DNA of 64,000 nt. Origin: an uncultured Candidatus Saccharibacteria bacterium (GTDB taxonomy: Bacteria; Patescibacteriota; JACMRA01). The notes beneath the pieces were generated by a model. The model was not told the origin of the DNA. It saw only the letters and a list, made by a program, of their open reading frames with translations, and did no database searches. The first letter of the stretch is position 1. Each line of letters opens with the position of its first letter. The stretch lies in assembly GCA_964434775.1 (NCBI GenBank), contig CAYSWH010000003.1, positions 1,877 through 65,876 on the forward strand, given 5' to 3'. The translations under genes were made by a program, and so were the position numbers. Shown piece by piece: positions 9,051 through 36,861 of the stretch.

Positions 9051-9278
9051 TATAGTCTATCCGAAGATAACCTATACACACTTGTCACGGCGAACTTGTT
9101 TCGGCACCTCTTCGAATAGATCCTGAAATAATAATTGTCATTCCGAACTTGTTTCGGAATCCCTTCGAATAGATCCTGAAATAAATTCAGGATGACTGTG
9201 TGGTAAATTCAGGATGACCACTTGGCAAGTGACGGAGAAAAATTTGGAAATGTTTAGGTTTGAGAGAGGATGGCTATA
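9051..9278 (+). mobile_element. MITE-like element, copy A (228 bp, internal ~55 bp module duplication)
   Basis: Bounded by TA-TAGTCTATCC ... GGATGGCTA-TA. Shares the hairpin modules cgaacttgtttcg, gatcctgaaataaattcaggatgac and cacttggcaagtg, and the aaatttggaaatgt block, with five other copies. Confidence 0.8.
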
Positions 9279-9416
9279 CCATAAAGAAAAAAGGATATTA
9301 TTAGAAAAGTGTAATATTTTTAATTTATAGTTGTAATACTATACGGAAGCAAGTTAAGGATCCAATTTGCTTTTGATTTTTAAAATATAATTTGTAACTA
9401 TAAAATAATTTACGAT

Positions 9417-10153
9417 ATGACTACAAAAAAAATTCTATTATCTACCGCTACTTTTAGTTTAATGTCAGCGGCTGTCGCCGGGGTATCTTTGCTCCTACTC
9501 TTAGTGCTAACGCTCAAGAGGCAACTCAGGCATCAAATTCGGCTAATACCGACTCCGGCCAAGGTCGTTTTGGAAGGTTTACTGAAGAAGAAAGAGAACG
9601 ATTTGAAAGCGTTAGAGAAGCGGTTAGGACTGCAGTAGAAGAAGCTAATTATGAAGCTTGGAAAACTGCCGTAACCGGACTTCCGGATGGCGGTGAAAAA
9701 CTCTTAGAGGCTGTTGATAGTGAGGATGATTTCAATCAATTAGTTGAAGCTCACAACTTAGCAGAACAGGGAAACTATGAAGAAGCTAGGGAAATCAGAG
9801 AAAACCTTGGTTTGGATAAAGGTTTTGGCCCAAAAAAGGATAAGGGTGACAGGCTTTCCAGGGAACAAGTGGAAGCTGTAAGGCAAGCTATGGAGAGCGG
9901 AGATTATCAAGCTTGGGTATCAGCAGTCCAAAATACTCCAAACGGTGGTGAACGTATTCTTGGGGTGATTGACTCTGAAGAAGATTTTAATAGGCTAGCT
10001 GAAAGTCATCAGAAGATGCAAGAAGGTGATATTGAAGGTGCCAGAGAAATTAAAGAAGAGCTAGGTTTACCGGAAAAAAGAAAAGGTCCTGGGGATAAAA
10101 AGGGAGGTGAGCAGAGAGGTTCACAGTATCAAGAAAAAGAAAATGAAGAATAA
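9417..10153 (+). CDS. Secreted helical protein with two ~55-aa tandem repeats; frame-disrupted after the signal peptide
   Basis: Signal peptide MTTKKILLSTATFSLMSAAVAG, then a G4 run (9480..9483). The +2 frame continues IFAPTLSANAQEAT...ANYEAWKTAV...EEAREIRENLGL / ...GDYQAWVSAV...EGAREIKEELGL up to the stop at 10153. Confidence 0.65.
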
Positions 10154-10183
10154 TTACTCAGTTCAAGCAAAACAGATACTTTG

Positions 10184-10209
10184 GCCCGGGTTAATGCCCG
10201 GGTTTTTGT
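10184..10209 (+). terminator. Rho-independent terminator
   Basis: gcccggg-ttaat-gcccggg followed by tttttg, about 30 nt after the stop at 10153. Confidence 0.7.
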
Positions 10210-10350
10210 TTATTTGACCGAAATGAATAAGTTACGGATAACTTAAGCACTAAATTAAATTTAGAAAGGAAGTTGAAAAAAATAATCTTAAGATCTTGGA
10301 ATTTTTTGATGTAGCTAACCTTCAAAGAGTTTTAGCAAATTGGAAATAGT

Positions 10351-12540
10351 ATGAAATATCCGAATTTTGACCCTCAAAGAAACACTTACCACTCAAATAA
10401 AACTCCTCTCGTAGCTTTGATTGGTCTGCCGAATTCAGGTAAAAGTACTTTACTTAATCGTATTACCGGTACCAAGAAGGCGATTGTGGCTAAAGAAGCT
10501 CATACAACCAGGGATTTGAATTTCGGTGAGGATGTCTGGGATGATATGTACGTTCGATACGTGGATACCGGAGGGTTGGTGCCTTCTCCGGAGGATAAAG
10601 TCCAACGGCAAATCCAGATCAAGAGTTGGTCGGCTATCAGTGAAGCAGATTTATTGGTTTGGGTTATTGATCGGAAACAAGATCCGGAAACTATCAGCGA
10701 AGAAATTGTACAAAGAATTTGGAAATTGAACAAGCCGTACATTATTGCTTTAAATAAGGTGGATGATCCTAAGCACGAAAAAGATATTTCCGAGTATGTG
10801 CGTTTGGGCGGTCAAGGATTTGTCAATGTAAGTGCTACTTCGTGTTACGGTTTGAATGAATTTTTGGATATGGTGGTCTTTGAGTTGGAAAAAAACGGAT
10901 TTGAAAAGATTGATTACTCCAATATTTCTTTATCCGAATCAAAAGAAAAAAAGAAAAAGAGCAAGGCCAAGGAAGTAAAAAAAAGCAAAACCGGAGATTT
11001 TTTTATAGTGAGGGATAGTACTGAAGAAGGTCCGGGACTCTACGAATCGATTAGTTCGGAAGAAGCTTTTGAGGAGAGTAGGGAAGTTATAAATCCGCTA
11101 AAAAACATAATTTTTGATTTGGAAGGGGTAGTTTTTGAAGACAGAGTCAAACAGATGGTCGAATTTTTGATCAATTCAGATAACTCTCTAACGGAAGCAA
11201 GGATATTAAAAATTTTTAAGAAAAATAGAAAGCGAGGTTTAAGTGCTCGTAAGGATTTAGAGTTCTGGGAGAATGCTTTGGAAGAACTAAAATTGGATTA
11301 TTCCGCTGAGGAGCTTATGGAAAAATACTTGGGACTATCAAAGGCAAATCAGCAAGTGGAAGAGTTTATTAAACAGAGATCAGAAGAGGAATATAAGCTT
11401 TTTTATTTATCCAACGGCGGCAAAAAAGAGGCTCTTCCTAGAGCTAATCACTATATAATGGAATATTTTGAAGACGGGATTTATAGTTTTCAGGTAGGTG
11501 CAAATAAACCGGATCCCAAGATTTTCAGGGAACTTTTGGAGAGCTATGATCTAAATCCTGATGAAACATTATTTATCGATGATAAAGATAAAAATGCCGA
11601 AGCAGCTCGAAACTTAGGAATGTGGGGATTGGTTTACGAAGATGAAAAAACTAACATTCAAGAGGGTTTTGAGAGGGTTATTTACGGAGAAATTCAAAAA
11701 ATTCCGGAAACACCCAAGATTTTGTTGCTTGGAAAGCCTAATGTCGGTAAAAGCTCCCTTTTTAATGCTCTTTGTAAAAAGGATCTGCAAATTGTAACTG
11801 ATCTCCCGGGTACTACTTTGAGTGTGAATGACTACTTGCTGGAAAGAACTTACGAAGACAAATATTTCAACAAACACCAAAAAAAATACGTCTTGTTAGA
11901 TACTGCCGGAATTAGAAAATCAGGCCAGAGAACATATGGCGTAGAAACTTTTGCCACTTATCGAACGATTCAAGCAGCTCACCAGGCTGACATTATTTGC
12001 TTTTTGGTGGATGCCTCTCAGCCGATTACCCATCAGGATCAAGTGGTGGCCGGGATTTGCCGGGAGGCTAATAAAGGGTTGGTGATTGTAGCAAACAAGG
12101 CAGACTTGGTAGATGAAGAGCAACGAAAAAGGTTCGTAAAAGATTTCCGTTTCCGTTTCCAATTTCTCAAAATTCACAAATTTATCTGGGTGTCCGCTAC
12201 GGAAGATAAAGATTTTACCGAATTATGGCAGGCAATTAACGAAGCAAAATCAGGACGAGAAAAAACGATTCCCAGAGAAGAGGTACGAAAACTCTTTAAC
12301 TACCTAATGAAAAAGAAACCACCAAATAAATTACACAACAAAAAAAGGCCGGTTATCTACGATCTTATTTACGCCAAATCCGCCCCTCCCACTTTTGAAC
12401 TGCTAGTCAAAGATAAAAGCACTATCCATTGGTCCTATCAGAGATTTTTAGAAAACATTATTCGTAATCAATTTAATCTGCACGGCAGTGGAATGAAAAT
12501 ACTTTTGAAGGAGGTAGATAGAAAGAAAGTCGTAGGTTAA
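10351..12540 (+). CDS. der: Ribosome-associated GTPase Der/EngA with a ~270-aa insertion (K/E-rich linker plus HAD-like domain) between GD1 and GD2
   Basis: GD1: GLPNSGKST, DTGGL, NKVD. Insertion: IIFDLEGVVFED, YLSNGG, GANKPDPKIF, LFIDDKDKNAEAA. GD2: GKPNVGKSS, DTAGI, NKADL. C-terminal KH-like tail. Confidence 0.85.
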   Translation: MKYPNFDPQRNTYHSNKTPLVALIGLPNSGKSTLLNRITGTKKAIVAKEAHTTRDLNFGEDVWDDMYVRYVDTGGLVPSPEDKVQRQIQIKSWSAISEADLLVWVIDRKQDPETISEEIVQRIWKLNKPYIIALNKVDDPKHEKDISEYVRLGGQGFVNVSATSCYGLNEFLDMVVFELEKNGFEKIDYSNISLSESKEKKKKSKAKEVKKSKTGDFFIVRDSTEEGPGLYESISSEEAFEESREVINPLKNIIFDLEGVVFEDRVKQMVEFLINSDNSLTEARILKIFKKNRKRGLSARKDLEFWENALEELKLDYSAEELMEKYLGLSKANQQVEEFIKQRSEEEYKLFYLSNGGKKEALPRANHYIMEYFEDGIYSFQVGANKPDPKIFRELLESYDLNPDETLFIDDKDKNAEAARNLGMWGLVYEDEKTNIQEGFERVIYGEIQKIPETPKILLLGKPNVGKSSLFNALCKKDLQIVTDLPGTTLSVNDYLLERTYEDKYFNKHQKKYVLLDTAGIRKSGQRTYGVETFATYRTIQAAHQADIICFLVDASQPITHQDQVVAGICREANKGLVIVANKADLVDEEQRKRFVKDFRFRFQFLKIHKFIWVSATEDKDFTELWQAINEAKSGREKTIPREEVRKLFNYLMKKKPPNKLHNKKRPVIYDLIYAKSAPPTFELLVKDKSTIHWSYQRFLENIIRNQFNLHGSGMKILLKEVDRKKVVG

Positions 12541-12612
12541 ACCGAGATGCATTATTTTTCCTTATTTGAACCCTTCTTTTTCTTTCTGAAAGGGATAAAC
12601 TTAATAGCAATC

Positions 12613-13185
12613 TCACTTCTTTTTGCCTCTACCTTTGAATTTATTATCGTGTCTAGGAAGTAGATTAAAAATCCTTTCGGCCAGCCAGCCAGGAAATCCG
12701 GGTGCTTTGATTATTAGCTTGAGTCCTTTGGCCCATTTCGGTACTTTACCTTTATTATCTGTAGCCATTCTGTCTAAAGCCCTTGAAGCTGAGTCCGTAA
12801 GATTTTTAGCAATTATTGTAGTATAGGCGAGGTCATCTCCTATACCAAGCAAAGGAATTATATCTGGTAAAATATCGGCAGGAGAAAAAACCAAAAGAGC
12901 TAAAATCGCGGTCTTAAACCAGACTTGTTCGTCAGACAGATGCTCATTTGGGGTAACTACTAAAAAATGTAAATACCGGGGGTCAAGATTTCTTATCATA
13001 GAAGCAAAGCTAAAAGAGCTTTCCGGTTTTGCCATTTCTTCTTCAGCTAATTTGCTGGGATCAACTTCAGGGGCTAGTGCGTCTATTTGAGGTAGCCCTA
13101 ATTCATCCAATCTTTCTGCTGCAGGAGGTGTTTCGGGATCTTCTCTTTCATTTTGTCTGGTTGTTTTTTCCATGTTCATAAGCAA
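12613..13185 (-). CDS. DUF1232 (YkvA-like) domain protein
   Basis: VFSPADILPDIIPLLGIGDDLAYTTII matches the DUF1232 signature (D-hIPD-hIP-hG-hDD) as I recall it. Confidence 0.6.
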   Translation of the reverse strand: MLMNMEKTTRQNEREDPETPPAAERLDELGLPQIDALAPEVDPSKLAEEEMAKPESSFSFASMIRNLDPRYLHFLVVTPNEHLSDEQVWFKTAILALLVFSPADILPDIIPLLGIGDDLAYTTIIAKNLTDSASRALDRMATDNKGKVPKWAKGLKLIIKAPGFPGWLAERIFNLLPRHDNKFKGRGKKK

Positions 13186-13194
13186 AATAAGTTT

Positions 13195-13740
13195 TTAAGC
13201 GGCAAGAGCAGTATCACCTTGAACAGACTCTCCTCGTTTTTTTACCGCTCCTTTTCCGACTGCCAGTCTTGTCAGCCAATCAGGCAATCCTGTATCTTCA
13301 GCTCCTTTTCTAACTATTATATGGGCCACAACTTTTCTTAGTTCGTTGGCAACCAAAACATCATCAGCAAGACCAAGTGGTCCTAAGACTATCTCCGGGG
13401 CTATAAGTCTACAGGGCTAATAAGTATATGCCGCCAAAATTACTGCTTTTGTATAAAGGGCTTCCGTAGATAATCTACGATTATTTAAAGGGTTTCTAGT
13501 TAACTCCCAAAGAACTCCGGGTGTCCTCTGAATGAATTCTTTAATTTGAGTGATAACTGTGTTGTCGAAGGAACCGCCCATCACTTGTGTTTCATCTCTA
13601 GTTAGAGAATCCGGAGTCACTGTAGAATTAAGAGCTTCGATTCCAGGATCAGGTATTTCTTTTAACAATCTTAGAGCCTCGGCCTGATGTAGTTCATTTT
13701 TTTCATGAGTGGAAGGAGGTGTTTCAGCTGTGTAAGTCAT
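13195..13740 (-). pseudogene. DUF1232 paralogue interrupted by an in-frame TAG (13417..13419)
   Basis: The 13417..13740 ORF ends ...KAVILAAYTY-TAG. The same frame continues PCRLIAPEIVLGPLGLADDVLVANEL... to the TAA at 13195..13197. The stop aligns with the Ser of the neighbour's VFSPADILPD. Confidence 0.6.
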
Positions 13741-13744
13741 AATA

Positions 13745-14188
13745 TTAGTTTTTTAGGTCTTCTGTAAGCTTAAAATGTTCAAGAAAGTAACCGTAATTGA
13801 GGATAGCTCCCTCACAAAAGTCCAAGCTAAAGGTTTGATTAGCCTTCATTTCTTCGGTTATTAGAGTAATCAAAACAGAAGAGTCCTTGGTTTGCTTAAT
13901 TTTTACGACAAATTCTGAAGAGTAATTCTTTTTCTCATCCAGGCAGTATTTGAGGGTTAGCCAGAGAAATTTTTCGTACAATTTCCATTTAAAATCCAGA
14001 GCTTCATATTGATCACGATTGCTTGGATCCAATTCAATCAATCTATTGAGGATGAGTCTGCTAAACAAATTAATTAAGCCGTATTTGTGATCTTTTTCGA
14101 TTTGACCGAGGAATTCCTGAAGGGCTACTTGGGCTTTTTCTATGTCCAGATTGGACGGGGTGGTTGAATTTGAAGTCACTTGGTTCAT
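13745..14188 (-). CDS. Hypothetical protein (147 aa), first gene of a three-gene minus-strand unit
   Basis: Clean ORF, 4 nt upstream of the DUF1232 pair. No recognisable motif. Confidence 0.5.
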   Translation of the reverse strand: MNQVTSNSTTPSNLDIEKAQVALQEFLGQIEKDHKYGLINLFSRLILNRLIELDPSNRDQYEALDFKWKLYEKFLWLTLKYCLDEKKNYSSEFVVKIKQTKDSSVLITLITEEMKANQTFSLDFCEGAILNYGYFLEHFKLTEDLKN

Positions 14189-14285
14189 AAAATTTTATTA
14201 TTTCATTAAATATGAGTCAATATTGATTATGTCTTATTTTTCTTAAAAAATCAAATCAGTCAATCATCAGCCGGAAATTTGATAG

Positions 14286-14315
14286 TTGACAAATTTATTA
14301 TTGAAGAAGCATAAT
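14286..14315 (+). promoter_or_regulatory. Candidate sigma-70 promoter of the ABC transporter operon
   Basis: TTGACA (14286..14291), an 18-nt spacer, then CATAAT (14310..14315), about 50 nt upstream of the ATG at 14365. Confidence 0.4.
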
Positions 14316-14364
14316 GCTTTAACTAGCTTAAATAATAAGCAAATAAAAATTAAATCTTAAATAT

Positions 14365-15054
14365 ATGACGGCAATTATCTCAGCTTCAGAAGTCAGCAGG
14401 ATATTTGGAACCAAACAAAATCCGATTACTGCCGTAGATGAGGTTAACCTGGAAATCGAAAAAGGTAGTTTCACAGTTGTTCTCGGAAAAAGCGGTAGCG
14501 GAAAATCCACTCTCCTTAATCTGCTCAGTGGTTTGGACAAGGCTACCCGAGGTCAATTGATCGTTGACGGAAACGACTTGGGAAAAAGTAGTAGTAGTGC
14601 TCTAGCCAAGTATCGTTCAGGGATCGGTATAATCTTTCAATTTTACAACTTACTTCCCAATCTAAACGCTGTAGAAAATGTGATGATGGGAGCCTGGGCC
14701 GGCGGACAAGAAGTAAAAGAAGAAAAAGCTCTGGATATTATGAAAAAATTTGGAGTGGAGCATAGAGCAAAAGCCGATGTAAAGACTCTTTCGGGAGGGG
14801 AAAAGCAGAGAGTGGCTATTTGTAGGAGTTTAGTAGGCGATCCGGAAATTCTTTTTTGTGACGAACCTACCGGAGCTTTGGATACCGCCAACGAAAAACA
14901 AGTAATGCAAATTATTCAAGAAATCCACCAAACCGGGGTAACAATTTTTATGGTTACTCATAGTCCCGATTTTGCCGATTATGCTGATAAAGTGGTATAT
15001 ATGACCGACGGAAAGATAGAAAAAGTAGAAGAAAAACAAAAACAAGTTGCTTAG
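14365..15054 (+). CDS. ABC transporter ATP-binding protein (MacB/LolD/FtsE-like)
   Basis: Walker A GKSGSGKST, signature LSGGEKQR, Walker B LFCDEPTGALD, H-loop VTH. Confidence 0.88.
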   Translation: MTAIISASEVSRIFGTKQNPITAVDEVNLEIEKGSFTVVLGKSGSGKSTLLNLLSGLDKATRGQLIVDGNDLGKSSSSALAKYRSGIGIIFQFYNLLPNLNAVENVMMGAWAGGQEVKEEKALDIMKKFGVEHRAKADVKTLSGGEKQRVAICRSLVGDPEILFCDEPTGALDTANEKQVMQIIQEIHQTGVTIFMVTHSPDFADYADKVVYMTDGKIEKVEEKQKQVA

Positions 15055-15085
15055 AAAAGCTTAGTTAATTGAAATAATATAAATT

Positions 15086-16624
15086 ATGAACTACAAATCT
15101 TATAAAATAATTTTAGGAAGACAGTTTAAAGAAAAATGGGGGAGAATTCTTTTAGCCTCCGGAGGAATCATGGTAGGCGTCTGGGCCATAACGCTTACTT
15201 CCAGTCTTTCTTTGGGTCTGTCAGATACTATTGTTACGGCTATCAACAGTCAAAGCTTTGCCAAGCAAATCACCTTGACTAAGACCGAGGGTAACCAAAC
15301 CAATTTATTTGACATTAGTGACGCTCCCCAATTTGTACCTATAGGTTTTGAGGAATTAAAAGAGGTAGAGGAATCCAATCCGAATATTCAGGCAGTAGGA
15401 ATCAATAATATAATTGGCTTTTATGTTCATACTGATCAGGCTAATGAAAATACATCCTGTGTAGATTGGTCCAGGCAATTGCAACCGAACCCTGCTCAGG
15501 AATCTCCAAATCAAGAACCTCAAGGAGTAAATATTGAAACTCAACCGGAGCCGGGGAATACTCCTCAACCTCAATCACCGGATGAGATAGAGGACAACGT
15601 TAACAAATTGCAAGAAGAGTGTAATCAATCAACGGCCATGACAAACTCTTTTCCTCTTTTTTATGAATCCAATCGTACTAGATGGGTAGGGCCTGCGGAA
15701 AAGCCCGGCAGAGAAGAGATTGTGGTCTGTTATGAATGCGGTTCGGAAAATTTGGGCGAAAAATTGGGTTATGACAATCCCGAAGATCTAGTGGGTCAAG
15801 AAATTACAATTGAATTTTCCAGAGCCCCTGATCTGTTTCCCAAAGACAAGCCGATTGATGTGACAAATCTTGAAAGGCAGAATGCCGCGATTACGGAAAG
15901 CGAGCCGATCAAATTTACGGTAGCGGCGGTTGTAGATGATAGAGACACCGGAGTATTTGGTCTGCCGTCGTATTATTTTGATGAGTACTACTACAAAGAA
16001 GCCTTTAGTCTGGCTAATCCGGATGTAAGCGTGGATGATTACGGATCGGCCGAAAATGATGTTTTTGTGGATAGTTATGATAATCTTAATTCGGTTATGG
16101 ACCAATTAAGAGACGAAGGATACTTGGTTTTTTCCTTGGCTCAAACTATTATCAGCGGAGTAGAAACAGCCTTTTTGGGCTTGACCGTTATTTTGGGACT
16201 CTTTGGACTTATTGCTTTGGTAGCTTCACTGTTTGGAATAGTTAACGTAATGACAATTTCAGTCTTGGAAAGAAAAAAAGAAATAGGTATCCTCAAATCA
16301 TTAGGAGCCAAGGACCAAGATATCTTTAATATATTCTTTATTGAGAGCACCTTGCTTGGAATTTTGGGGTGGTTGATGGGTACTCTTTTGGCCGGAGGTA
16401 TGGGTCTTGGAATAGGACTCTTGAGTCAGTATTTGATAGAATCCAATGAGCAATGGAGAGATAATTTACAGGCCCTGAATATTGAGCAGTTTACACCTGC
16501 CTTTCCTTGGTGGATTTTGCTGGGAACCTTTGTTTTGGCGGTGTCCTTTACCGCTGTGTCCGGCTTGATTCCGGCAATTAGAGCCAGTAAGCAAAATCCG
16601 GTAGAAGTTCTGCGGAGTGAGTAA
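15086..16624 (+). CDS. ABC transporter permease, FtsX/MacB-type with a large extracytoplasmic domain
   Basis: N-terminal TM, a ~330-aa external domain, then the FtsX-like C-terminal bundle with ERKKEIGILKSLGAKDQDI. Confidence 0.8.
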   Translation: MNYKSYKIILGRQFKEKWGRILLASGGIMVGVWAITLTSSLSLGLSDTIVTAINSQSFAKQITLTKTEGNQTNLFDISDAPQFVPIGFEELKEVEESNPNIQAVGINNIIGFYVHTDQANENTSCVDWSRQLQPNPAQESPNQEPQGVNIETQPEPGNTPQPQSPDEIEDNVNKLQEECNQSTAMTNSFPLFYESNRTRWVGPAEKPGREEIVVCYECGSENLGEKLGYDNPEDLVGQEITIEFSRAPDLFPKDKPIDVTNLERQNAAITESEPIKFTVAAVVDDRDTGVFGLPSYYFDEYYYKEAFSLANPDVSVDDYGSAENDVFVDSYDNLNSVMDQLRDEGYLVFSLAQTIISGVETAFLGLTVILGLFGLIALVASLFGIVNVMTISVLERKKEIGILKSLGAKDQDIFNIFFIESTLLGILGWLMGTLLAGGMGLGIGLLSQYLIESNEQWRDNLQALNIEQFTPAFPWWILLGTFVLAVSFTAVSGLIPAIRASKQNPVEVLRSE

Positions 16625-16749
16625 GGTACTTCCTTTTGTACATTAGATATCTCGGTAAATTAAATCAAGTTACTCAAAAAAATCCAAGACAGGGTTTAGA
16701 AAAGAGTAAAGTCTCGATTTAAGCAAAATAGGCAGAATGTTGAGGTCGT

Positions 16750-16931
16750 TATTGTCGATCCGAATATAACCTACAACACTTGTCATACTGTCACGGCGAA
16801 CTTGTTTCGGCATCTCTATATGATGAGGAGATCCTGGAGTAACAATGAAAAGACCCTGAAACGAGTTCAGGGTGACGGTCTCCCTCCGAGTGAAATTTGG
16901 AAATGTCTAGGTTTAATTTGGTTTGACTATA
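16750..16931 (+). mobile_element. MITE-like element, copy B (divergent right half)
   Basis: Its left 60 nt (atccgaatataacctacaacacttgtcatactgtcacggcgaacttgtttcggcatctct) are identical to copy C. It ends aaatttggaaatgtctaggtttaatttggtttgacta-TA. Confidence 0.75.
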
Positions 16932-17150
16932 CTTGCCAATCAAGGAAAATTAAATAAGAAAAGAGAAAAAGTTATTAAACCAACCTTCTTAAACATTAAA
17001 AATAATAAAATAGCCTAGACATTCAACACTAACGAACATCAAGGTACAAGCCTTAGGCTAAAAAAATCTTAAGCAAGGGCAGGGACGACGAGTAAGACGA
17101 ATCTTGATGTCTCATCCCCACCACTTGCCCGGTTCCGGTTAGCAGTCGTT

Positions 17151-18121
17151 TTAGCGGGTAATTAGCGGTAAGTATACCACCTCGGTGGGCGGCGGCGGAT
17201 CATCGTCGGTGGGCAGAGGTCCGTACCGGACGATTTCGTTTCCTACATTGCAAACGACCGTGCCATTTGAGAATTCACCTGAAAAATTCCCGCAGGGGCC
17301 TAACAGACTAAGGTTGTCCAAGGTCCCGCTCCAGGCCTGGGGGCCCATGGGACCATCGGTGAGTACCAGGTACTTCCCATCCCCACCGGCCTCGAAGACG
17401 TCTACGAAATACGCCCCCCTTTGGGGAGTATCCCGCATGACGACGCTGCCATTCCCACCATCCTTTAAGATAGTTGAGTACGGAAACAACTTGTCCACAA
17501 ACATTATGGAGCCGTCGTTCTGGGGGCTTTTGGCGTGGGTCGGCACTACCGGTCGATTGGCTTCTCCCCTCATTGTCTCGAGGGGGATTCCGGCGATTGC
17601 ACCTGGTGTGGTCGGTGTCCGCAAGATGACATCCAGGCTGCTGAAGAACAGGAAGCCATTGAGAAGGACGGGTTTATTTCCAGCAAATATATGCTGGCCA
17701 CCATCGGTCGTCAGCAGGTGGACGCTTCCCCGTGTTTCAAAGGCGACCGTCCCCTCCGAAGCAACAAGATCCATGGGTCGATCCACCCCTTCGACGATGG
17801 TCGTCGTTGTATTCTCGGTAAGACGTTGCAGGGACCATGAGCCATCCCCCCCTGCAGGAAGAAGAGAATGGAGGTTGGACTCTCCCATATTGGGTGGGCG
17901 GTCGGGCCATCATGGATTTTTTCCAGGTCGCCGTCGCCGTAGACGTACAGGGCTGATTCCTCAACGAACACGATCTGGCCTTCCGTGTTCACATCGGGGC
18001 TGTGTCCTTCGGCGATCCGGACGGGAGCTGTTTGGGCCTGGGCCTGGCCCTGGGTCGCTCCGACTCCGACTAAACCTACTAACATAAGCAGCAGGGTGAG
18101 TGGTGTGAGTGCGTAACGCAT
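17151..18121 (-). CDS. Secreted protein encoded on a high-GC island; frame-disrupted as assembled
   Basis: 18121 opens MRYALTPLTLLLMLVGLVGVGATQGQAQAQ (signal peptide) ...GDLEKIHDG. The 17151..17888 frame is open from about 17915 (WPDRPPNMGESNLHSLLPAGGDGSW...). The two join with a 1-nt change in the G/C run at 17903..17905. The repeated G/D/T-rich strand-like segments suggest a beta-rich fold. Confidence 0.65.
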
Positions 18122-18396
18122 TTTTACACCTTTCGTGTATTATACAAACAATAGAACCGGCTCGTGCCGGGTTTTCCCGGGGGTTTGCTCCGACTTGAGG
18201 TCTCCTACCTCTCAAGTCAGTGTTACCCGGGGAAAGGTTTGTTTTGAAAGTTGTTTGGGTTCGTTGTGTTGTTGCTGTTGCGATTTGTTCTAATTTTGAT
18301 CTTGTGGGTTTGTTTATAAAACAAATTGACGACTAAGTCCGTGTGTAGGTGTGTATTAAGTGCAACTATGATTGTTTGTTTTTTGCGTTTTGGTTA

Positions 18397-18556
18397 TATA
18401 GCCATCCCTTCTTAAACCAAGACATTTCCAAATTTTTCTCTGTCACTTGCCAAGTGGTCATCCTGAATTTATTTCAGGATCTATTCCAAGAGATGCCGAA
18501 ACAAGTTCGCCGTGACAGTATGACAAGTGTTGTAGGTTATATTCGGATAGACTATA
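18397..18556 (-). mobile_element. MITE-like element, copy C (160 bp, inverted relative to copy B)
   Basis: On the plus strand it reads TA-TAGCCATCCC...ggatagacta-TA. Its reverse complement aligns along its whole length with the family consensus. Confidence 0.8.
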
Positions 18557-18964
18557 TTTTAACGAATAAATGTCTGTTAAGAACGGTTTGTTTGAATTGT
18601 GTTGGTGTCGAATCTCCAAAAAACTTTGAAAACAAGCCTTTCCCTCAGGTTTACTTGACTTACTTGAGAAGAGGAAGTTTCCAAATTGATTGATTATATT
18701 TTTTAGTTTGTTGTGCAATCAATTGTGTTTACCTTTTTTCCTAAAATTTTAACGCTAACTTAACCGGGCAAATTACATGTAAATTTACTTATGATTTTGA
18801 CTATTAAATTTTGCAGTCAAAATCCAAGCGGCAATTGTATACAGAAAAACTAGTTTTTTGTCCAGCCGGAAATTTTTAACGCTTGATATAGATAAAGCGA
18901 TTATCAGAAATAATTTAATAATTGTTTTTAGTAGTTGACTCTATGTCTTTGTTTTTAACCGTGT

Positions 18965-19054
18965 TGGTGCGGTCGAGAGGATTTGAACCTCCACACCAAA
19001 AAATACTGGCACTACCACCTCAAGGTAGCGTGTCTACCATTCCACCACGACCGC
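18965..19054 (-). tRNA. tRNA-Leu (anticodon GAG), CCA encoded
   Basis: Reverse complement gcggtcgtggtggaatggtagacacgctaccttGAGgtggtag...ggttcaaatcctctcgaccgcacca, with a long variable arm. Confidence 0.88.
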
Positions 19055-19107
19055 TTGAATACTTGAATAAGACAACATGTTAATTATCTACACAATCTAA
19101 CCTGTCT

Positions 19108-19181: not shown

Positions 19182-19201
19182 AAACAAACCGTAAAATTTT
19201 T

Positions 19202-21493: not shown

Positions 21494-21947
21494 TATTTTA
21501 TTTTGATTTTCAAAATCATGGAAAGTTACTTTTTTAAAAAATCAAGATTTAGTTTTGTCCTATTCGTCTATGACTGTCAACAGGCACAAGAGTATATTTT
21601 TGCATCATCATTTAGGTGAAGAATGAAGCAGACTTTAACCGAGAGGTAAAATTAATAAAATTTATTCAAAAACCTAAGCCTGCTCTTCCGGATTGGATCC
21701 AATATTCATTTTTCCGACTTTGTTAAGATTTCTATTATTTAAAAATTCTCTAAGGTTATAGCTATTATCCAGGACGGTTTTTTGATGACACCTTTTAGAA
21801 AACAAAGTGACAAATTCTTGCTTAATAGGATTAGGGGTAACCATTGTCAAAATTTCTAAGCCGAATAATTAACACGGAAATATTGACACAATTGGAATTA
21901 TTCAGTAGATGATAATAGTTTATTTCATTATTAATATTACACCGAAA

Positions 21948-22967
21948 ATGACTAAAAAAGCATTAATCACGGGAATTGCGGGACAAGACGGATCTTATCT
22001 AAGTAAACTACTTCTGGAAAAAGGATACGAAGTATACGGAGCATTGCGCCGGGAAGATTTTCAAAATTTGCATAATCTGGAAAAATTCGGCATTCGTGAG
22101 CAGATCAAAACCGTTCACTTTGATCTCTTGGATCAACAAAGTATTTTAAAAGCAATTTCAGAGATAAAACCTGACGAAATGTATAATTTGGCTGCTCAGT
22201 CATATGCCGGGGATTCTTTTGAATGGTCTATTTCTATTTCTATGGCCAACGGTTTGGCAGTTGGGTATATTTTAGATGCGATTTATAATTTTTCTCCGCA
22301 TACTAAACTTTTTCAAGCCTCTTCTTCACAAATGTTTAAAGAATCTAAGGAAGAGCAAAAGTTAAACGAAGACACTCCCTTAGAACCCAAAAATCCTTAC
22401 GGAACTTCCAAATTATATGCTCACTGGCTGGTCAAAAATTATCGGGAGAGTTATGATCTGTTTGTGGTATCCGGAATCCTTTTTAACCATGAGTCGGAAT
22501 TGAGAGGAAAACATTTTGTAACCAGAAAAATCACTGCTCATGTAGCTGCAAATGCCAAAGGTCTAACGGATAGTCCGCTACAGTTAGGAAATATAGATGC
22601 CCAAAGAGATTGGGGGTATGCACCTGATTATGTTGAAGCGATGAATCTTCTCCTCCAGAGCGAGGTGCCGGAAGATTATGTAATTGCCACCGGAAGGGCA
22701 ACAAAGATTAGAGATTTTGTAGAAAAATCCTTTGCTGTTATCGGTAAAAAAATTAACTGGGAAGGTCAGGGTGTTGATGAAAAAGGGCTGGATTCAAATA
22801 CCGGTGAAATCCTGGTAGAAATCAACCCGAATTTTTATAGGTTAGGCGAACAAAAAGTTCAACTGGGAGATGCTTCCAAGATAGAAAATCAATTGGGCTG
22901 GAAATCTGGGAAAACTGTAGAAGATATTGCCAAAATCATGGTTGAACACGATTTATCCTTGCTTTAA
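21948..22967 (+). CDS. GDP-mannose 4,6-dehydratase-like SDR (paralogue 1, active-site variant)
   Basis: [41 protein letters not shown] (YxxxK), NHESELRG. The Gmd STSE motif reads SSSQ. The start was moved to the ATG at 21948 (MTKKALITG). Confidence 0.75.
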   Translation: MTKKALITGIAGQDGSYLSKLLLEKGYEVYGALRREDFQNLHNLEKFGIREQIKTVHFDLLDQQSILKAISEIKPDEMYNLAAQSYAGDSFEWSISISMANGLAVGYILDAIYNFSPHTKLFQASSSQMFKESKEEQKLNEDTPLEPKNPYGTSKLYAHWLVKNYRESYDLFVVSGILFNHESELRGKHFVTRKITAHVAANAKGLTDSPLQLGNIDAQRDWGYAPDYVEAMNLLLQSEVPEDYVIATGRATKIRDFVEKSFAVIGKKINWEGQGVDEKGLDSNTGEILVEINPNFYRLGEQKVQLGDASKIENQLGWKSGKTVEDIAKIMVEHDLSLL

Positions 22968-24841: not shown

Positions 24842-25315
24842 ATGAATCTAAATAATATTAATCAGAATTTTCCTCCAAACCAACCGAACGGCAACTTAAA
24901 TCCGGGATTTAATTCAAACCTTTCAGCCAATAGGGCAAATCAACCAAGTCAACAAAATCACAGTGTTTCGTCTCCTCAATATGATAACTACAGCTCAAAC
25001 CCTGATAATACATATAAAAACTATGTCTCAACCGAAAGCAGTAATTACACCTCCAACACTAACCAGAACTATCAATCTAACCGGAAAAATTACCGTTCCG
25101 GGGCAAGTTCGAATTATCGTTCCTTAAATAAACAAAAAAATAACTCAAGTCGCGGGAGTTATAGTCGAATAGATGGGGTAGAAGGCTTGCCGAAGACCGT
25201 TAATAAAGAAAAAAAAGGAAGCTCCGGGACGTTGTCGTATATAATCATAATTGTAATTACTTTCATTATCGGAGGACTTATGCTTGGAGGTCTGGCTTTG
25301 TTTTTTTCTGTTTAG
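24842..25315 (+). CDS. N/S/Q/Y-rich low-complexity protein with a C-terminal TM anchor
   Basis: About 130 aa of Asn/Ser/Gln/Tyr-rich sequence, then IIIIVITFIIGGLMLGGLALFF at the C-terminus. Confidence 0.55.
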   Translation: MNLNNINQNFPPNQPNGNLNPGFNSNLSANRANQPSQQNHSVSSPQYDNYSSNPDNTYKNYVSTESSNYTSNTNQNYQSNRKNYRSGASSNYRSLNKQKNNSSRGSYSRIDGVEGLPKTVNKEKKGSSGTLSYIIIIVITFIIGGLMLGGLALFFSV

Positions 25316-25653: not shown

Positions 25654-25849
25654 TATAGTTGATCCGAACATAACCTATACACATTTGTTCCGGCGAACTT
25701 GTTTCGGCATCTCTTCAAATAGATCCTGAAATAAATCCAGGATGACGAGGTTGCAAATTCAGGATGACCACTTGGCAAGTGACGGAGTAAAATTTGGAAA
25801 TGTCTGGGTTTAAGAGGGGGTGGCTATAAATCAAGAAGAGCAAAAGAAA
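25654..25849 (+). mobile_element. MITE-like element, copy D (core 25654..25828 plus a 21-nt shared extension)
   Basis: TA-TAGTTGATCCGAAC...GGTGGCTA-TA. 195 of 196 nt identical to the reverse complement of copy E by hand alignment. Confidence 0.85.
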
Positions 25850-26758: not shown

Positions 26759-26856
26759 AGTTTCATGAATTTTTTTTAATAACAAGATATTTTCTTCTTG
26801 GTGATTCCATATAAACAAAACAAAAAATCTATCTTTTTCAGACTTGCTGATTTATT

Positions 26857-27336: not shown

Positions 27337-27593
27337 ATTACTCTTATATTTTTATTGATTAATATTAATAATACGGAAACCGGTCTTTTTACGAAACCGC
27401 TAAAATTTTGTAACTAAAGGTCTTAAGTTAATTAGTCCTCAATCTTTATACAGGAGGGATAACTTGCAAAAGTCATCCGCTTGAAACATAGCAAATTTGG
27501 TTAATTTAATTAACTGTTTCTTTAAAAAAAAATTCTGTCAAAATCCTTGACATTTAGATGATATAAAACTATTTTTAATTAGTTTATTTTTTT

Positions 27594-28577: not shown

Positions 28578-28592
28578 AATGAACTAAACAGT

Positions 28593-29882: not shown

Positions 29883-30008
29883 CTATTCATGTTTTTTTAA
29901 TTAGTAAATCCTCAAAAAAATCCAAAATTTAGAAAATTTTTGAAGAGTTTTAGGATGAATTAACAACATTGGGACCAAAAGAAAGTACTTATTTATTGTC
30001 GACAAATT

Positions 30009-30204
30009 TTTCTTTTGCTCTTCTTGATTTATAGCCATCCCCTCTTAAACCCAGACATTTCCAAATTTTACTCCGTCACTTGCCAAGTGGTCATCCTGAA
30101 TTTGCAACCTCGTCATCCTGGATTTATTTCAGGATCTATTTGAAGAGATGCCGAAACAAGTTCGCCGGAACAAATGTGTATAGGTTATGTTCGGATCAAC
30201 TATA
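30009..30204 (-). mobile_element. MITE-like element, copy E (inverted partner of copy D)
   Basis: Its reverse complement equals copy D except for one position (gggGtggctata versus gggAtggctata). Confidence 0.85.
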
Positions 30205-30492
30205 TAATGATAATTAATAAATATATTTAGACGAAAAAAGACCACATCCAAAGGATTGATAGTTTTAGATAAATTCCTCATCTCTTTTTGACTAAAAAAG
30301 CGGCATCTAAAATTAGAATTACTTCTTTTTAATCCATACATTCTTTTGCCTGTTTAAGTATTTAGGAGGTCGACAGAAAAACGTTTTTATTACTGCATCT
30401 AATCAGTATAAATCCGACAATTTTTTATTTATCAAATAGAAGGAAATTTTTTTGTGCATCCGTATTTTTAATTTAAGGGGTGTCTTAATTGA

Positions 30493-33400: not shown

Positions 33401-33789
33401 TTATATTTCGACAGTAGCCAAAATCCTGTAACCGTCAGACCGAGTAGTCCGATTAATCCGCTAACATAAACAAAACCTTTTATCTTCTTTCTGTGTTTTT
33501 TGTAAAACCTCTTAACTTTATTCTTAAAACCGGGTTTGTTTTCTTCTTCCGGCAAGTTTGTATCTTCTTCCGGGTACCAATTTTCTTCGTTAGGGTGACC
33601 AAACTCCGGTTCGTAGTCATCTTCCGGACGGTAATCTTTGGAGTAGTCTTCTTGAGTATTATTTTCTGTGTAGTTTTGTCGGGGGTAATGATTTTCCGGA
33701 GTCCTTAGATCATCCGGCTGTGGTCTATCAGTATAAATATCCGTACTTTTCCTTCTGGGGCGCTTGGGCTCAACAATGATTTCTGTCAT
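30493..33789 (-). CDS. Class A penicillin-binding protein (transglycosylase/transpeptidase) with a long C-terminal extension
   Basis: GT51 motifs ALEDENFYEN and RGGSGLSQQLIKN. Transpeptidase motifs PGSSYKP (SxxK), SLN and KTGTT. An N-terminal TM, and a ~330-aa C-terminal region with a poly-Glu tract. Confidence 0.88.
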   Translation of the reverse strand: MTEIIVEPKRPRRKSTDIYTDRPQPDDLRTPENHYPRQNYTENNTQEDYSKDYRPEDDYEPEFGHPNEENWYPEEDTNLPEEENKPGFKNKVKRFYKKHRKKIKGFVYVSGLIGLLGLTVTGFWLLSKYNQAPSVKAQALQPPEGSVVFDRKEREIISYSGGAENREYVSLSNISENMQLAIIALEDENFYENEVGIPWKNLVGATVKCLFSRGQECRGGSGLSQQLIKNVSGQDDHSVDRKLNELMSAIKFNQEVDREEVLELYLNWVPFGRNMYGIEKASQSFYGKSAKDLTISESCYLASMPQKPTVYSLGITDIMEGNTNTPAAEELIARKNACIEKMAAVPLRGQDKPMYIQQSQVAELQAEIPDFLPPKETEIKYGHIQNYIVHEMEEKFGITQKELLTKGYKIHSTFDIDKQARMEQIITENSGTYILPNGANNAAAMVLDGPSGEIVAMIGSRDFNNVEIGGQVNVATSYRQPGSSYKPYVFAGAFERGFNPGTILLDAKTDFGGFSPSNFNKKTYGLVTARYSLQNSLNIPSVKGAYLLQNPGNQPDSISAVNNLESFASKVGVSHLRECDITMALGSCEVSMESHVTGINTLLQEGNLRTANPFKKIISREYDPSTGGLEERVFYENTQEENNPYPRIDQVIDSSIAKEVAHVMSDYDSRDPSIWGTVKSNLELDGWTGNNSVAAKTGTTSDVRDAWTVGGSPYYTVTVWVGNTDNSPMNPDATGSTSAAPIWKQIMTEIHQDKPKKGFSVEGLTPVKLSRTSGFISDSGATEYLSEEQISLLNQATEKLSGGNYNPRENSIFQNRSPITNRTIKVTAIDNKLLPNDFNLPEELITEMQCGELLSEFPQNPAWYSPAKAIGGSGNTCPTEKSDISEDKLKPEIETNLESNSPAPKTIAINVKTVNENIRVTQIDLRINGVTVETAENSPNLEVLTNSLEITGKNSVEIIIKTDFDMEVKAEFTNVNFSSANDEEEEEEEETEIDLSSFKVNCSDVELGENSTCQIVPPAKTELSVIYIFIGQSTVGSSCTLSSNSVTTCTVSTAGNEAAANLPIYITGSGTQKIEVPDSTISITDPSAGEEDEDSTGD

Positions 33790-34113
33790 ACAGTTGTTAA
33801 TTTATTGATTGAACTTATACTTATAAAAGCTGTTTTTATTTTTATCTTTAAATTCAGTTAACAATTTACTCAATATTTTAGTCTTTTGTAAAATGTTTTT
33901 TCAAAATTGTAAATAGAGGCAAATCCTTTGTTTAATTAAAGTGTCTTTTGGTTAGTTGTTTGTGACATATCTTTTTGGATTTTTAATGGAAATTTTCAAT
34001 AGTCGACTTTGCAAATGTGAATTTTGTAGCCAATAATTCAATAATAAAGATTTAAGCTGTTTGTTTCCATTTGTGATTAATTTCTATAAAAATCTTCTAT
34101 AGATAACTTTGGC

Positions 34114-34142
34114 TTGACATTTTTTGATTTTATTAGGATATT
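34114..34142 (+). promoter_or_regulatory. Candidate promoter of rpsG
   Basis: TTGACA (34114..34119), a 17-nt spacer, then GATATT (34137..34142), about 30 nt before the ATG at 34173. Confidence 0.35.
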
Positions 34143-34172
34143 ATTTCTTGATTAAAAGGATTAAAACCTTAT

Positions 34173-34667
34173 ATGCCAAGAAGAAAAAGAGTGTTAAAGA
34201 GACCTAAAATCTCAGCTGACAAAACTTTTAACAGTATTTTAGTTTCACGTCTTGTTAACAGAGTAATGTGGGACGGAAAAAAAACAATTGCTAACAAAAT
34301 AGTGGTTAGCTCGTTGACCAAAGCCAGTGAAGAGTTGCAGGTAGCACCACTGGAAGTTTTGGAGACAGCGGTGAATAATGTTCAGCCGCAAATTGAAGTA
34401 AAAAGTGTCAGAGTCGGTGGGGCTAATTATCAAGTTCCAATGGAACCTTATCCTGCCAGAGGTCTTAGGTTGGCCCTAACATGGATTGTTAATTCTGCCA
34501 GAGGAATTAAAGGTAGGCCGATGGAAGACAAATTAAAGCAAATTTTAGTTGAATCTTTTAATAATGAAGGTCCTGCAGTAGGAAAAAGGAACACGGTACA
34601 TCAAACCGCTGCCGGTAACAAAGCTTTTGCTCATTTGGCACTTAGAATCAATCGTAAAAAAAGCTAG
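34173..34667 (+). CDS. rpsG: 30S ribosomal protein S7
   Basis: MPRRKRVLKRPKISADKTFNSILVSRLVNRVMWDGKKTIANKIV... with full-length S7 similarity. Confidence 0.92.
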   Translation: MPRRKRVLKRPKISADKTFNSILVSRLVNRVMWDGKKTIANKIVVSSLTKASEELQVAPLEVLETAVNNVQPQIEVKSVRVGGANYQVPMEPYPARGLRLALTWIVNSARGIKGRPMEDKLKQILVESFNNEGPAVGKRNTVHQTAAGNKAFAHLALRINRKKS

Positions 34668-34670
34668 TCT

Positions 34671-35684
34671 ATGAAAACTGCGTTTATTACCGGAATTAGC
34701 GGTCAAGATGGAGCTTGGTTAGCTAAGCTATTGTTGGAAAAAGGGTATGAAGTCTATGGCGGTATTAGAAGGACCAGCCGACAAAATTTATCTGTTTTGG
34801 AATTTTTGAACATTGAGGACAAAGTAAAATTGGTAGAATTTGATTTATTAGAATACTCAAACATTTACCAAGTTATAACCGATATCAAGCCTGATGAATT
34901 TTATAATCTCGCAGCGCAAAGTTTTGTGGGTACAAGTTTCAAACAACCAATTAATACTAGTTTGACCGACGGTTTAGCAGTGACTTATATTTTGGATATT
35001 ATTAAGAATTTTTCTCCTGAAACCAAATTTTACCAAGCTTCTACCAGCGAAATGTTTGGTAAAGTGCAGGCCATTCCTCAAGCGGAAGACACTCCTTTTT
35101 ATCCCAGAAGTCCATATGGTGTAGCTAAATTGTATGCTCATTGGATGACTGTTAATTACAGAGAGAGTTACAGTCTTTTTGCTGCAAGCGGTATTTTATT
35201 TAACCATGAGAGTGAGTTAAGAGGTCCTGAGTTTGTGACTCGAAAAATTACTATGAATGTTGCTAAATGGGCAAAAAATCGGAATATACCTTTAGAACTC
35301 GGTAACTTGGATGCCAAGAGAGATTGGGGCTATGCTAAAGAATATGTAGAAGGTATGTATTTAATGTTGCAGGCGGAAAAGCCGGATACTTTTGTACTGG
35401 CTACCAATGAAACTACCAAGATTAGAGATTTTGTGAATTTTGCTTTCCAGGTTATTGATAGAGAAGTTAGGTGGGAAGGTGAAGGAGAGAATGAGAAAGG
35501 TTTTGATGCAAAGACAGGAGAACTACTGGTTCAAGTTAATCCAAAGTTCTACAGACCGGCTGAAGTCGATCTGTTAATCGGAGATAACAGTAAGGCTAAG
35601 AGAGTTCTCGACTGGAATCCACAAACAGACGTAAATAAATTAGCGGAAATAATGGTAAAAAACGACATTGATCTCTTGAGCTAG
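34671..35684 (+). CDS. gmd: GDP-mannose 4,6-dehydratase (paralogue 2, canonical active site)
   Basis: [54 protein letters not shown]. Confidence 0.88.
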
Positions 35685-35845
35685 TTTTAACAGAATTTTA
35701 TCTTGCAACTTTTGATCAAAAACTTTGATTTGCTGTAATTATTTAATATACAAGCGATCTTTGATAATTGGGGTTATTTCCTACCAATGACGGTTAAGCT
35801 CTTTAATTTTTCAATTGTTTGTTATTTTTTTTGTAAACACGTTTT

Positions 35846-36562
35846 ATGGCAGTTCCGAAAATTAAATTTTGCGGTTTTACCAATACTGAAGATATTCAAA
35901 GGACAGTCAGTTTAGATTTCAACTATTATGGGTTTATTCTTGAGATAGCAAACAGTCCTAGGTCTATAAACTTGGACAAGGCTATAGAATTGGTAAGATT
36001 TACAAAAAATATATCAGACAAGAAGGCTGTAGCGGTGGTATGTAATCCCTCTGACTCTTTTGTCAAGCAGATTATTGACAGCCAAACCTTTGATGTAATT
36101 CAGTTTCACGGGCAGGAAGTGCCGCAAGTTCTTAAATCTTTAAAAGGAAAGATCGAAACATGGAAAGTTTTTAATTATGGAAAAAATGAGAATAATGCTA
36201 ATTCAGAACCTTTTAACTCTAGCAAATTTAAGGAACAATTACTATCCCGAGTTAAAAATTATCAAGAGAGTTTGGACAAAATTGTCTTGGACTTACCCAA
36301 GGATATTTCTTCAGTCAAAACACCGAGTGAAGAAATTCAAGAGCAAATTACTTTTGACCAAGACTTTTTTAAAAAACTTAGCGATTTAAATATCCCACTT
36401 ATTCTGGCCGGCAAATTAACACCGGAAAATATTTTGGAAAGAATTAAATTCTTTGATTTTTACGGTGTGGACTTGGCCAGTGGAGTTGAAGCAAATCCGG
36501 GTAAGAAAGATTATCAAAAAATGGTTAGTTTTATTAAAGAGGTAGAAAAGGTTGGGCGGTAG
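35846..36562 (+). CDS. trpF: Phosphoribosylanthranilate isomerase-like protein with an internal insertion
   Basis: KIKFCGFTNTEDI, NSPRSI, VIQFHGQE, LILAGKLTPENI and GVDLASGVEANPGKKD follow the TrpF pattern. A ~40-aa N/K/S-rich insertion follows WKVFNYG. Confidence 0.7.
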   Translation: MAVPKIKFCGFTNTEDIQRTVSLDFNYYGFILEIANSPRSINLDKAIELVRFTKNISDKKAVAVVCNPSDSFVKQIIDSQTFDVIQFHGQEVPQVLKSLKGKIETWKVFNYGKNENNANSEPFNSSKFKEQLLSRVKNYQESLDKIVLDLPKDISSVKTPSEEIQEQITFDQDFFKKLSDLNIPLILAGKLTPENILERIKFFDFYGVDLASGVEANPGKKDYQKMVSFIKEVEKVGR

Positions 36563-36664
36563 CAGATTTTGATTTTACGCGACTTTGAAATTTCATGTTC
36601 TATAGCTAAACACGCTTTAACTTAGATACTTTCCCGGTAATCAGAATACCCCGTCAATACTTTT

Positions 36665-36861
36665 TATAGTCGATCCGAACATAACCTATACCCACTTGTC
36701 ATGCCGGACTTTCATTGTCATGGCGAACTTGTTTCGGAATCACTTTCGAAGATAGATCCTTAAATAAATTCAGGATGACGGGATAGCAAATTCAGGGTTA
36801 CCAGTTGGCAAGTGACAGAGTAAAATTTGGAAATGTCTAGGTTTAATGAGGTTTAGCTGTA
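36665..36861 (+). mobile_element. MITE-like element, copy F
   Basis: TA-TAGTCGATCCGAACATAACC ... aaatttggaaatgtctaggtttaatgaggtttagctg-TA. Same module order as the other copies, with a private insertion. Confidence 0.78.

Follow-up and report, generated by a model that had tools for sequence, protein, structure and literature searches.

Short TA-flanked intergenic repeats in an uncultured bacterium, probably a family of non-autonomous transposable elements

The DNA described here, termed the window, is a stretch of 64,000 nucleotides from contig CAYSWH010000003.1 of an uncultured bacterium. It contains six copies (A to F) of a short dispersed repeat. The six copies align end to end, from a TATAG start to a CTATA end, and their flanks are unrelated. 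A first-pass annotation of the window had reported six intergenic copies; its coordinates were borne out to the base by whole-length alignment, and all copies do lie between called genes. Two further copies (G and H) were found 5-9 kb past the window end in L089, an ENA contig reaching 9.7 kb past that end, giving eight copies in ~82 kb. No copy was found in the 8.4 kb upstream of the window. The eight copies range in length from 160 to 242 nt, and the density of ~1 copy per 10 kb amounts to ~2% of the sampled DNA. The material covered was ~82 kb of one population and 23 kb from two distant relatives. The ribosomal protein S7 of the window shares 73-77% identity with proteins that bear the names Patescibacteria group, candidate division SR1 and Candidatus Gracilibacteria. 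On the basis of this identity and of open reading frames (ORFs) that are intact under code 11, the host is taken to be a barely sampled Candidate Phyla Radiation (CPR, Patescibacteria) bacterium; its source is microbial mats of the Andes. The copies and related features are listed in Table 1.

Table 1. Repeat copies, example termini and enclosed segments (window coordinates unless a contig is named)
Feature	Position	Strand	Remarks
Copy A	9051..9278	+	228 nt; full-length alignment and nhmmer
Copy B	16750..16931	+	182 nt; left member of inverted pair B/C
Copy C	18397..18556	-	160 nt, shortest; right member of inverted pair B/C
Copy D	25654..25828	+	175 nt, canonical form; left member of inverted pair D/E
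Copy E	30030..30204	-	175 nt; 99% identical to D
Copy F	36665..36861	+	197 nt
Copy G	L089 17441-17682	-	outside window
Copy H	L089 21561-21758	-	outside window
5' terminal inverted repeat (copy D example)	25654..25682	+	consensus TATAGTCGATCCGAANATAACCTATACAC; well conserved in 8/8 copies
3' terminal inverted repeat (copy D example)	25800..25828	+	reverse-complement consensus TATAGCCAnCCCCTCTTAAACCTAGACAT
B/C-enclosed segment	16932..18396		1.46 kb; 57%-GC secreted-protein gene; genome 37% GC
D/E-enclosed segment	25829..30029		4.2 kb, five genes, 34% GC (host-like)

Each of the six window copies has the motifs AAATTTGGAAATGTCTAGGTTTAA, GATCCGAACATAACCTA and CGAACTTGTTTCGG, none of which recurs elsewhere in the 64 kb. 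The number of matches expected from shuffled sequence was 0.00 for the 24-nt 3' motif, 0.15 for the 17-nt 5' motif and 0.47 for the 14-nt core. A profile scan had been suggested as a check on the family; an nhmmer profile built from the six copies recovered exactly those six in the window and no fragments, with G and H lying just beyond it. Pairwise identity is 67-90%, except between D and E (99%), and copy B is the most divergent (67-81% to the other copies). Copies A, B, C and F are spanned with 100% colinearity by ENA contigs from independent assemblies (L023, L024, L037 and L038), so the copies are real and not assembly artefacts. Many short-read contigs end within copies (L007 in F; L019-L021 in D; L024 in C; L028 in D and E), as is expected for dispersed repeats. 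The repeats are where the short-read assemblies and metagenome-assembled genome (MAG) contigs of this organism end, and they also give rise to spurious ORF calls. The ORFs at 18349-18693, 18458-18718 and 30129-30341, which had been ascribed to the repeats, do overlap copies C and E. Stops are found in nearly all reading frames of the copies, the sole end-to-end open frame being in copy C.

TA was present at all 16 junctions of the eight copies, in agreement with the first-pass annotation, which had placed a TA on each side. In short form the termini read TATAGTCGATCC...GGCTATA. Substitutions affect the TAG/CTA next to the flank (TATTG in B, CTGTA in F and TATAA in G) and never the flanking TA. 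Variant 3' ends were found in copies B (GGTTTGACTATA) and F (GGTTTAGCTGTA). The terminal inverted repeat (TIR), earlier given as ~10 bp, proved to be a two-block, imperfect repeat of ~29 bp with 17 of 29 positions matching between the two end consensuses. The blocks, a tip (TATAG) and an inner block (AACCTAKACA), are kept across all copies. The stretch between them is unlike at the two ends and at the 3' end also varies among copies.

Three palindromes had been named in the interior of the copies and all are present, with differences from copy to copy. CGAA-CTTGT-TTCG is invariant in the six window copies. The palindrome ATCCTGAA-ATAAA-TTCAGGAT is perfect in A and C and carries one mismatch in D, E and F; in copy B the central hairpin is swapped for ACCCTGAA-ACGAG-TTCAGGGT. 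CACTTG-G-CAAGTG was found in A, C, D and E. Length variation is modular, with a 22-nt unit and a ~53-nt core module changing in copy number. Copy C has a single 21-22-nt unit (AAATTCAGGATGAC plus spacer), H has three and most copies have two; the two 22-nt units of copy D are at 25733-25778. The ~53-nt core module, which holds CGAACTTGTTTCGG, is duplicated in tandem in A (cores at 9091 and 9144), and G has a decayed duplication of it. Near TGTCA, copies B, C and F have short partial duplications, that of F being near the 5' end.

Miniature inverted-repeat transposable elements of bacteria (bacterial MITEs) have been described as non-coding, A+T-rich elements of <200 bp or so, with a TIR, 5'-TA-3' termini, stem-loop transcripts and internal-block size variants (PMC2229807). 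Measured against this description, the present copies are small, non-coding and dispersed, have a TIR in two-block imperfect form and end in 5'-TA-3' throughout. The first-pass annotation had proposed MITEs of IS630/Tc1-mariner type. A MITE-like non-autonomous family is the best-supported reading, with most of the published MITE characters present, and this part of the proposal stands; the IS630/Tc1-mariner assignment found no backing in a transposase within the ~82 kb. It is probable that the family is a TA-targeting, non-autonomous DNA transposon mobilized in trans, similar to the Correia and RUP elements. The IS630/Tc1-mariner group is defined by TA-only targeting with duplication of the TA, and its transposases bind ~24-bp imperfect inverted repeats via two helix-turn-helix motifs (PMC2170065). 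The two-block TIR would be compatible with binding of this kind.

Under the MITE reading a DDE transposase supplied in trans would cut and paste the copies. Binding would be to the inner block and cleavage at the tip, with insertion of the element at a TA, which would be duplicated. IS630/Tc1-mariner elements and the MITEs derived from them (RUP, Correia-like elements) act in this manner. After spreading, the copies would diversify by slippage or recombination of their internal modules (the 22-nt unit from one to three times, the ~53-nt core once or twice), and those surviving would be found mainly at gene 3' ends. TA duplication, the class of the transposase, past mobility and composite behavior are inferred. 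With the exception of the D/E pair the family looks old and quiescent, because copies differ by 10-33% while co-occurring strains, which are 94-98% identical and so differ by 2-6%, share the same insertions where these are visible.

A number of observations weigh against a MITE. An autonomous partner was sought and no transposase was found in the ~82 kb made up of the window and two extensions, using Pfam on sizeable ORFs. Within the window no Pfam transposase, integrase or recombinase domain was detected in ORFs of ≥100 aa, as the first-pass annotation had stated for the 64 kb, and NCBIfam added nothing for the orphan proteins. The TIR, with its 17 matches in 29, is weaker than in most MITE families. 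No part of the element varies more than the final ~15 nt at the 3' end, while the internal blocks AAATTTGGAAATGT, CTTGTTTCGG and AGATCCTGAAAT are nearly invariant, a contrast which could reflect a function at the level of the host. No empty site was found among contigs from any sample. Contigs crossing the sites in JGI, ENA, Logan and NCBI assemblies were all filled or ended at the repeats, and this was also the case where strain polymorphism was sought (contigs of ERZ922772/3, ERR1878617, ERR2407577/8, SRR333045xx and MAG GCA_054921195.1). The TA may therefore belong to a conserved TATAG...CTATA terminus and not be a duplication. Exact-motif and blastn searches brought up no related copy from another organism. 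The 99% identity of D and E spans 199 nt and runs inward beyond the 3' end for 21 bp (AATCAAGAAGAGCAAAAGAAA; 25829-25849 and 30009-30029), and this shared flank is left unexplained by simple TA-to-TA transposition of the element alone. It could come from a longer subfamily, a target preference or the duplication of element and flank together.

The forward strand of the copies also folds better than the reverse strand, by 8.7-11.5 kcal/mol in six of six window copies, which conservation of a TIR purely at the DNA level would not predict. For the consensus the values are -25.9 and -15.4 kcal/mol (forward and reverse, respectively). The repeats could on this evidence function mainly as RNA, that is, as a structured module of the 3' untranslated or intergenic region, co-transcribed with the upstream gene, which affects mRNA stability or processing in the manner of ERIC and NEMIS/Correia RNAs and is kept by selection irrespective of how it arose. 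We consider this explanation unlikely. The consensus pairs include 30 G.U against two A.C, and most one-sided changes retain a wobble pair on the forward strand, but the excess is partly built in since the structure was predicted on that strand. While the swapped hairpin of copy B is re-paired (ACCCTGAA/TTCAGGGT), covariation overall was no better than in shuffles (2 of 37 pairs compensated, with 29-44 of 500 shuffles equal) and the alifold covariation term was positive. The ends pair in all predicted folds. Dinucleotide shuffles give z-scores of -3.4 (A and B) and -0.7 (D), and mononucleotide shuffles give -3.4 to -4.3 (A-C) and -1.0 to -1.2 (D-F), so that fold scores for D, E and F are weak (-0.7 to -1.2).

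The position of the copies relative to genes bears on the same question. Seven of the eight are co-oriented with the gene on their 5' side, as a co-transcribed module would be, but four of these seven lie in convergent spacers, where orientation is uninformative, and copy G is antisense to both neighbors. Copy A is located between a stop codon and a terminator-like hairpin, and the better conservation of the internal blocks than of the 3' terminus also fits an RNA function. On the other side, upstream genes are 90 to 409 nt away and belong to unrelated classes; a fixed distance from one gene class, named beforehand as the sign that would speak against a mobile element, was not seen. Rfam gave no match. 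At the gathering thresholds of Rfam 15 the window and L089 yielded only tRNAs and 16S rRNA, and at E≤1 the region 16600-18960, which holds B and C, had no match. A dedicated RNA gene is disfavored by the Rfam negative and by covariation not above shuffles. Read-through transcription may possibly have a side effect at the RNA level.

Of the 65 intergenic spacers of the window 33 are tandem, and convergent and divergent ones number 16 each. Convergent spacers hold four of the six window copies and tandem spacers the other two; G and H are also in tandem spacers, and none of the eight is in a divergent one. There is a mild bias toward gene 3' ends, which is usual for such elements and statistically not strong. 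The upstream genes encode an orphan 238-aa protein (downstream of an ECF sigma-factor gene), FtsX, a tRNA, an orphan 157-aa protein, PBP1, TrpF, 16S rRNA and a 41-aa ORF, the last cut by a contig end. Copy A starts 90 nt past the stop of the 238-aa gene and the terminator-like hairpin is downstream of it at 9344-9375. Copy B starts 125 nt past the FtsX stop. Copy C lies between a tRNA-Leu/Gly/Leu cluster and the start of a foreign gene described below. Copy F is 103 nt past the stop of the phosphoribosylanthranilate isomerase gene (PRAI, trpF) in a convergent intergenic region, and copy G is 322 nt beyond the 16S gene, between it and the gene of a 677-aa protein. In no copy was a hairpin followed by a T-run, as a terminator would require, and as regards promoters only 9/12 promoter-like matches were found inside copies. 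On the 3' side of A-E the flanking 40 nt hold 21-23 A, an enrichment not seen in F, G and H. No convincing alignment of these flanks was obtained; the A-richness could have the same origins as the shared flank of D and E, namely a longer subfamily, a target preference or the duplication of an element with its flank. At 37880-39510 (+), some 1 kb from copy F, the gene of a LexA-like repressor precedes small orphan genes and one for a PIN-domain protein; this cluster may be a toxin-antitoxin system or the remnant of a mobile element.

Copies B(+) and C(-), and likewise D(+) and E(-), form inverted pairs with 5' ends outward in both. The first-pass annotation had recorded the copies correctly and missed these two pairs as units enclosing cargo. 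In B/C the outer 68 nt (5') are 97% identical and the inner halves differ. The foreign gene between them, at 17151-18121 (-), encodes a signal-peptide protein of ~320 aa and is split by a frameshift into two overlapping ORFs, with a run of seven C (17846-17852) in the overlap. Its leader (18122-18396, ~275 nt) is C/A-rich and contains a long CCCGGG...CCCGGG hairpin. No match to this gene was found in Pfam, NCBIfam, PDB sequences or Rfam. It was probably acquired recently by horizontal transfer and is now decaying or phase-variable. The D/E cargo genes encode a 113-aa membrane protein, an EVE domain protein, a GNAT acetyltransferase, a GalE-like epimerase and a 429-aa multi-pass membrane protein. 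In short-read assemblies the D/E segment is a separate 4.28-kb contig (L028) which breaks in both repeats. Neither cassette was seen inverted or in another context in any sample.

The two pairs with outward 5' ends may have moved, or arisen, as composite units. In a further step the conserved 5' end would be the active end, and such pairs would constitute a composite transposon which captures and moves genes in this CPR bacterium, with B/C as one capture and D/E as a recent one. CPR bacteria are mostly episymbionts, and the cargo would include DNA of a high-GC organism, possibly that of the bacterium's own host. This is speculative and we think it doubtful. If true, the MITE family would be a principal means by which genes are gained in a lineage held to be very poor in mobile elements. 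MITE-bounded composite units are known, among them integron mobilization units and the MITE pairs around class 1 integrons in Acinetobacter and Enterobacter. As in those units, two inverted copies bracket cargo which includes horizontally acquired DNA (B/C and D/E). The present pairs differ in having TA flanks only, with no other target duplication, the cargo is not resistance genes and the movement is putative.

Another alternative is that the inverted pair itself is the functional unit, its members being the long TIRs or recombination sites of composite transposons or of invertible or exchangeable cassettes, and that the solo copies A, F, G and H are left-over ends. Both adjacent pairs do share the same geometry, which under random orientation has a chance of ~1/16, and the B/C copies, with near-identical outer and differing inner halves, hold a 57%-GC gene within a 37%-GC genome. 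The D/E identity extends into the inner flank and the D-E segment carries accessory envelope genes. Yet the GC content of the D-E cargo is that of the host, four solo copies stand against two pairs, and TA is also present at the inner ends of all four paired copies, as for separate insertions. No recombinase or invertase was found nearby, and no second cassette copy, alternative context or inversion in any sample. This alternative is distinctly improbable.

The mosaic of short palindromes with variable module number is reminiscent of REP/BIME-like or IS200/IS605-derived palindromic elements (REPIN, PATE), which are moved as single-stranded DNA by an HUH (Y1) enzyme, RAYT or TnpA. The strand asymmetry in folding, the asymmetry of the two element ends and the location at gene 3' ends would also suit an origin of this kind. 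The consensus, however, has no GTAG/CTAC-type REP tetranucleotide, the first and last ~30 nt of the element are without a hairpin in the folds, and besides TA there is no conserved 4-5-nt target 5' of the left end. In addition both strands carry copies within 28 kb, the 82 kb are without a Y1_Tnp or RAYT gene, and the unit of 160-242 nt is far longer than REPs. Such an origin is very unlikely. Membership of the REP/BIME/REPIN group was rejected as there is no 20-40-nt palindromic unit with a GTAG-type tetranucleotide and no Y1 transposase in 82 kb. Membership of the IS200/IS605-derived PATE was rejected as a TIR is present, subterminal hairpins are not and the flanks share only TA.

Among described systems the repeats are closest to the Correia (NEMIS, CREE) elements of Neisseria, RUP and other IS630-type MITEs, ERIC, and MITE-bounded composite units. 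To our knowledge the Correia-repeat transposase has never been identified, and a cognate transposase is known for neither family. Pairs of Correia elements have been implicated in rearrangements. Like the present copies, Correia elements are small, non-coding, dispersed in intergenic regions and bounded by TA at each end. As RNA they fold into a long stem-loop, and the present copies may do so as well. They also have length variants through an internal block, with forms of 107 and 155 bp (PMC2229807). The tip of the Correia repeat (TATAGTGGAT) matches the first 10 nt of the present family (TATAGTCGAT) at 9 of 10 positions (PMC5039591). This match is a small lead, which hints at a shared class of end-cleaving enzyme. 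Beyond the 10-nt tip the repeat and core are unrelated. The Correia TIR is a near-perfect 26 bp, in contrast to the two blocks found here, no integration host factor (IHF) site was recognized in the present family, the host is CPR and not Neisseria, and tandem internal modules of variable copy number are a feature of the present family and not of Correia. Correia/NEMIS membership was rejected because the 26-bp repeat (TATAGTGGATTAA...) and characteristic core were not found and agreement is confined to the first 10 nt.

RUP of Streptococcus pneumoniae and other IS630-type MITEs share with the present family TA ends, short imperfect TIRs, a size of 100-250 bp, an intergenic location and proposed trans-mobilization by a DDE enzyme (PMC2229807, PMC2170065). 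RUP is tied to IS630-Spn1 by TIR identity, whereas the link of the present family to IS630 is through the TA flanks alone. The enterobacterial ERIC/IRU sequences are likewise bounded by TA, form imperfect palindromes ≥127 bp long, occupy transcribed intergenic regions, and similarly show indel size variants at fixed sites and possible orientation-dependent RNA effects (PMC2229807). They have no sequence similarity to the present family, and ERIC is largely static and positionally conserved across species.

The searches for relatives of the family were as follows. The 3' motif had five chance matches in 185,579 GTDB species genomes, none with the core motif, and a two-motif pattern had none in JGI metagenome contigs. 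Three motifs gave 0, 45 chance and 0 matches in IMG/VR, and nhmmer on the 45 was negative. Copy D had no blastn match among plasmids (PLSDB) and phages (INPHARED). To find spurious proteins called on further copies, six-frame translations of A, B, D and F were concatenated and compared with a set of 5.8 billion proteins; nothing reached E≤0.01. The collection-wide DNA scans required exact motifs, so diverged relatives would be missed. By these exact-motif and blastn searches the sequence family appears to be new, being absent from GTDB species genomes, JGI metagenomes, IMG/VR, PLSDB and INPHARED; in kind it is an ordinary bacterial MITE. A full-text literature search found no MITE family described for CPR bacteria. 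CPR/Patescibacteria genomes are small and streamlined and are usually called poor in mobile DNA. The present family suggests that small non-autonomous elements shape gene content and interrupt assemblies in at least one such lineage.

The window is also contained in a 111-kb JGI metagenome contig (3300012009, Ga0153773_1000047). The organism was also found in ENA project PRJEB25599 (records named 'microbial mat metagenome'), a project to which a paper about Andean microbial ecosystems refers, in several Logan runs and in MAG GCA_054921195.1. One contig of this MAG (L025, JBUDSI010000138.1, equivalent to window 13238-16745), from a 98%-identical strain, stops 4 nt before copy B, unlike other contigs, which end some way into the repeat. 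This end could be due to chance or to a branch of the assembly graph at the insertion point, as in a mixed population of filled and empty sites. The closest usable S7 relative (L043, 84% identity) showed neither synteny nor a copy.

A complete 16S rRNA gene is located in L089 at 15628-17118, ~3.3-4.8 kb past the window end, and the JGI contig terminates within it. No 23S gene follows; copy G and then the gene of the 677-aa protein, an orphan, are next to the 16S gene, and the rRNA genes therefore appear to be unlinked. At 34173-35684 the S7 gene is solitary, with neither S12 nor EF-G beside it, and a GDP-mannose 4,6-dehydratase gene comes next; a second dehydratase paralogue is 12 kb off (21909-22967). 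In L043, the nearest relative fetched, epimerase/dehydratase genes are upstream of S7, and this difference in order indicates that the S7 region is rearranged between relatives.

Several large orphan proteins (671, 697, 380 and 651 aa) are without a Pfam or NCBIfam match, which fits a poorly sampled lineage. The 651-aa protein had a single homologue, of 31% identity, in the 5.8 billion proteins and no relative in JGI metagenomes. The orphan proteins at 24842-25315 (+) and 52025-54010 (+) have long low-complexity regions rich in N, Q and S. Only the C-terminal endonuclease/HhH part of UvrC is encoded at 50904-51886 (-), in two overlapping ORFs (170 and 160 aa), and this uvrC may be truncated or frameshifted. 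The gene at 10351-12540 (+) encodes a Der/EngA double GTPase of 729 aa with a HAD hydrolase domain between the two GTPase domains, which is an unusual architecture.

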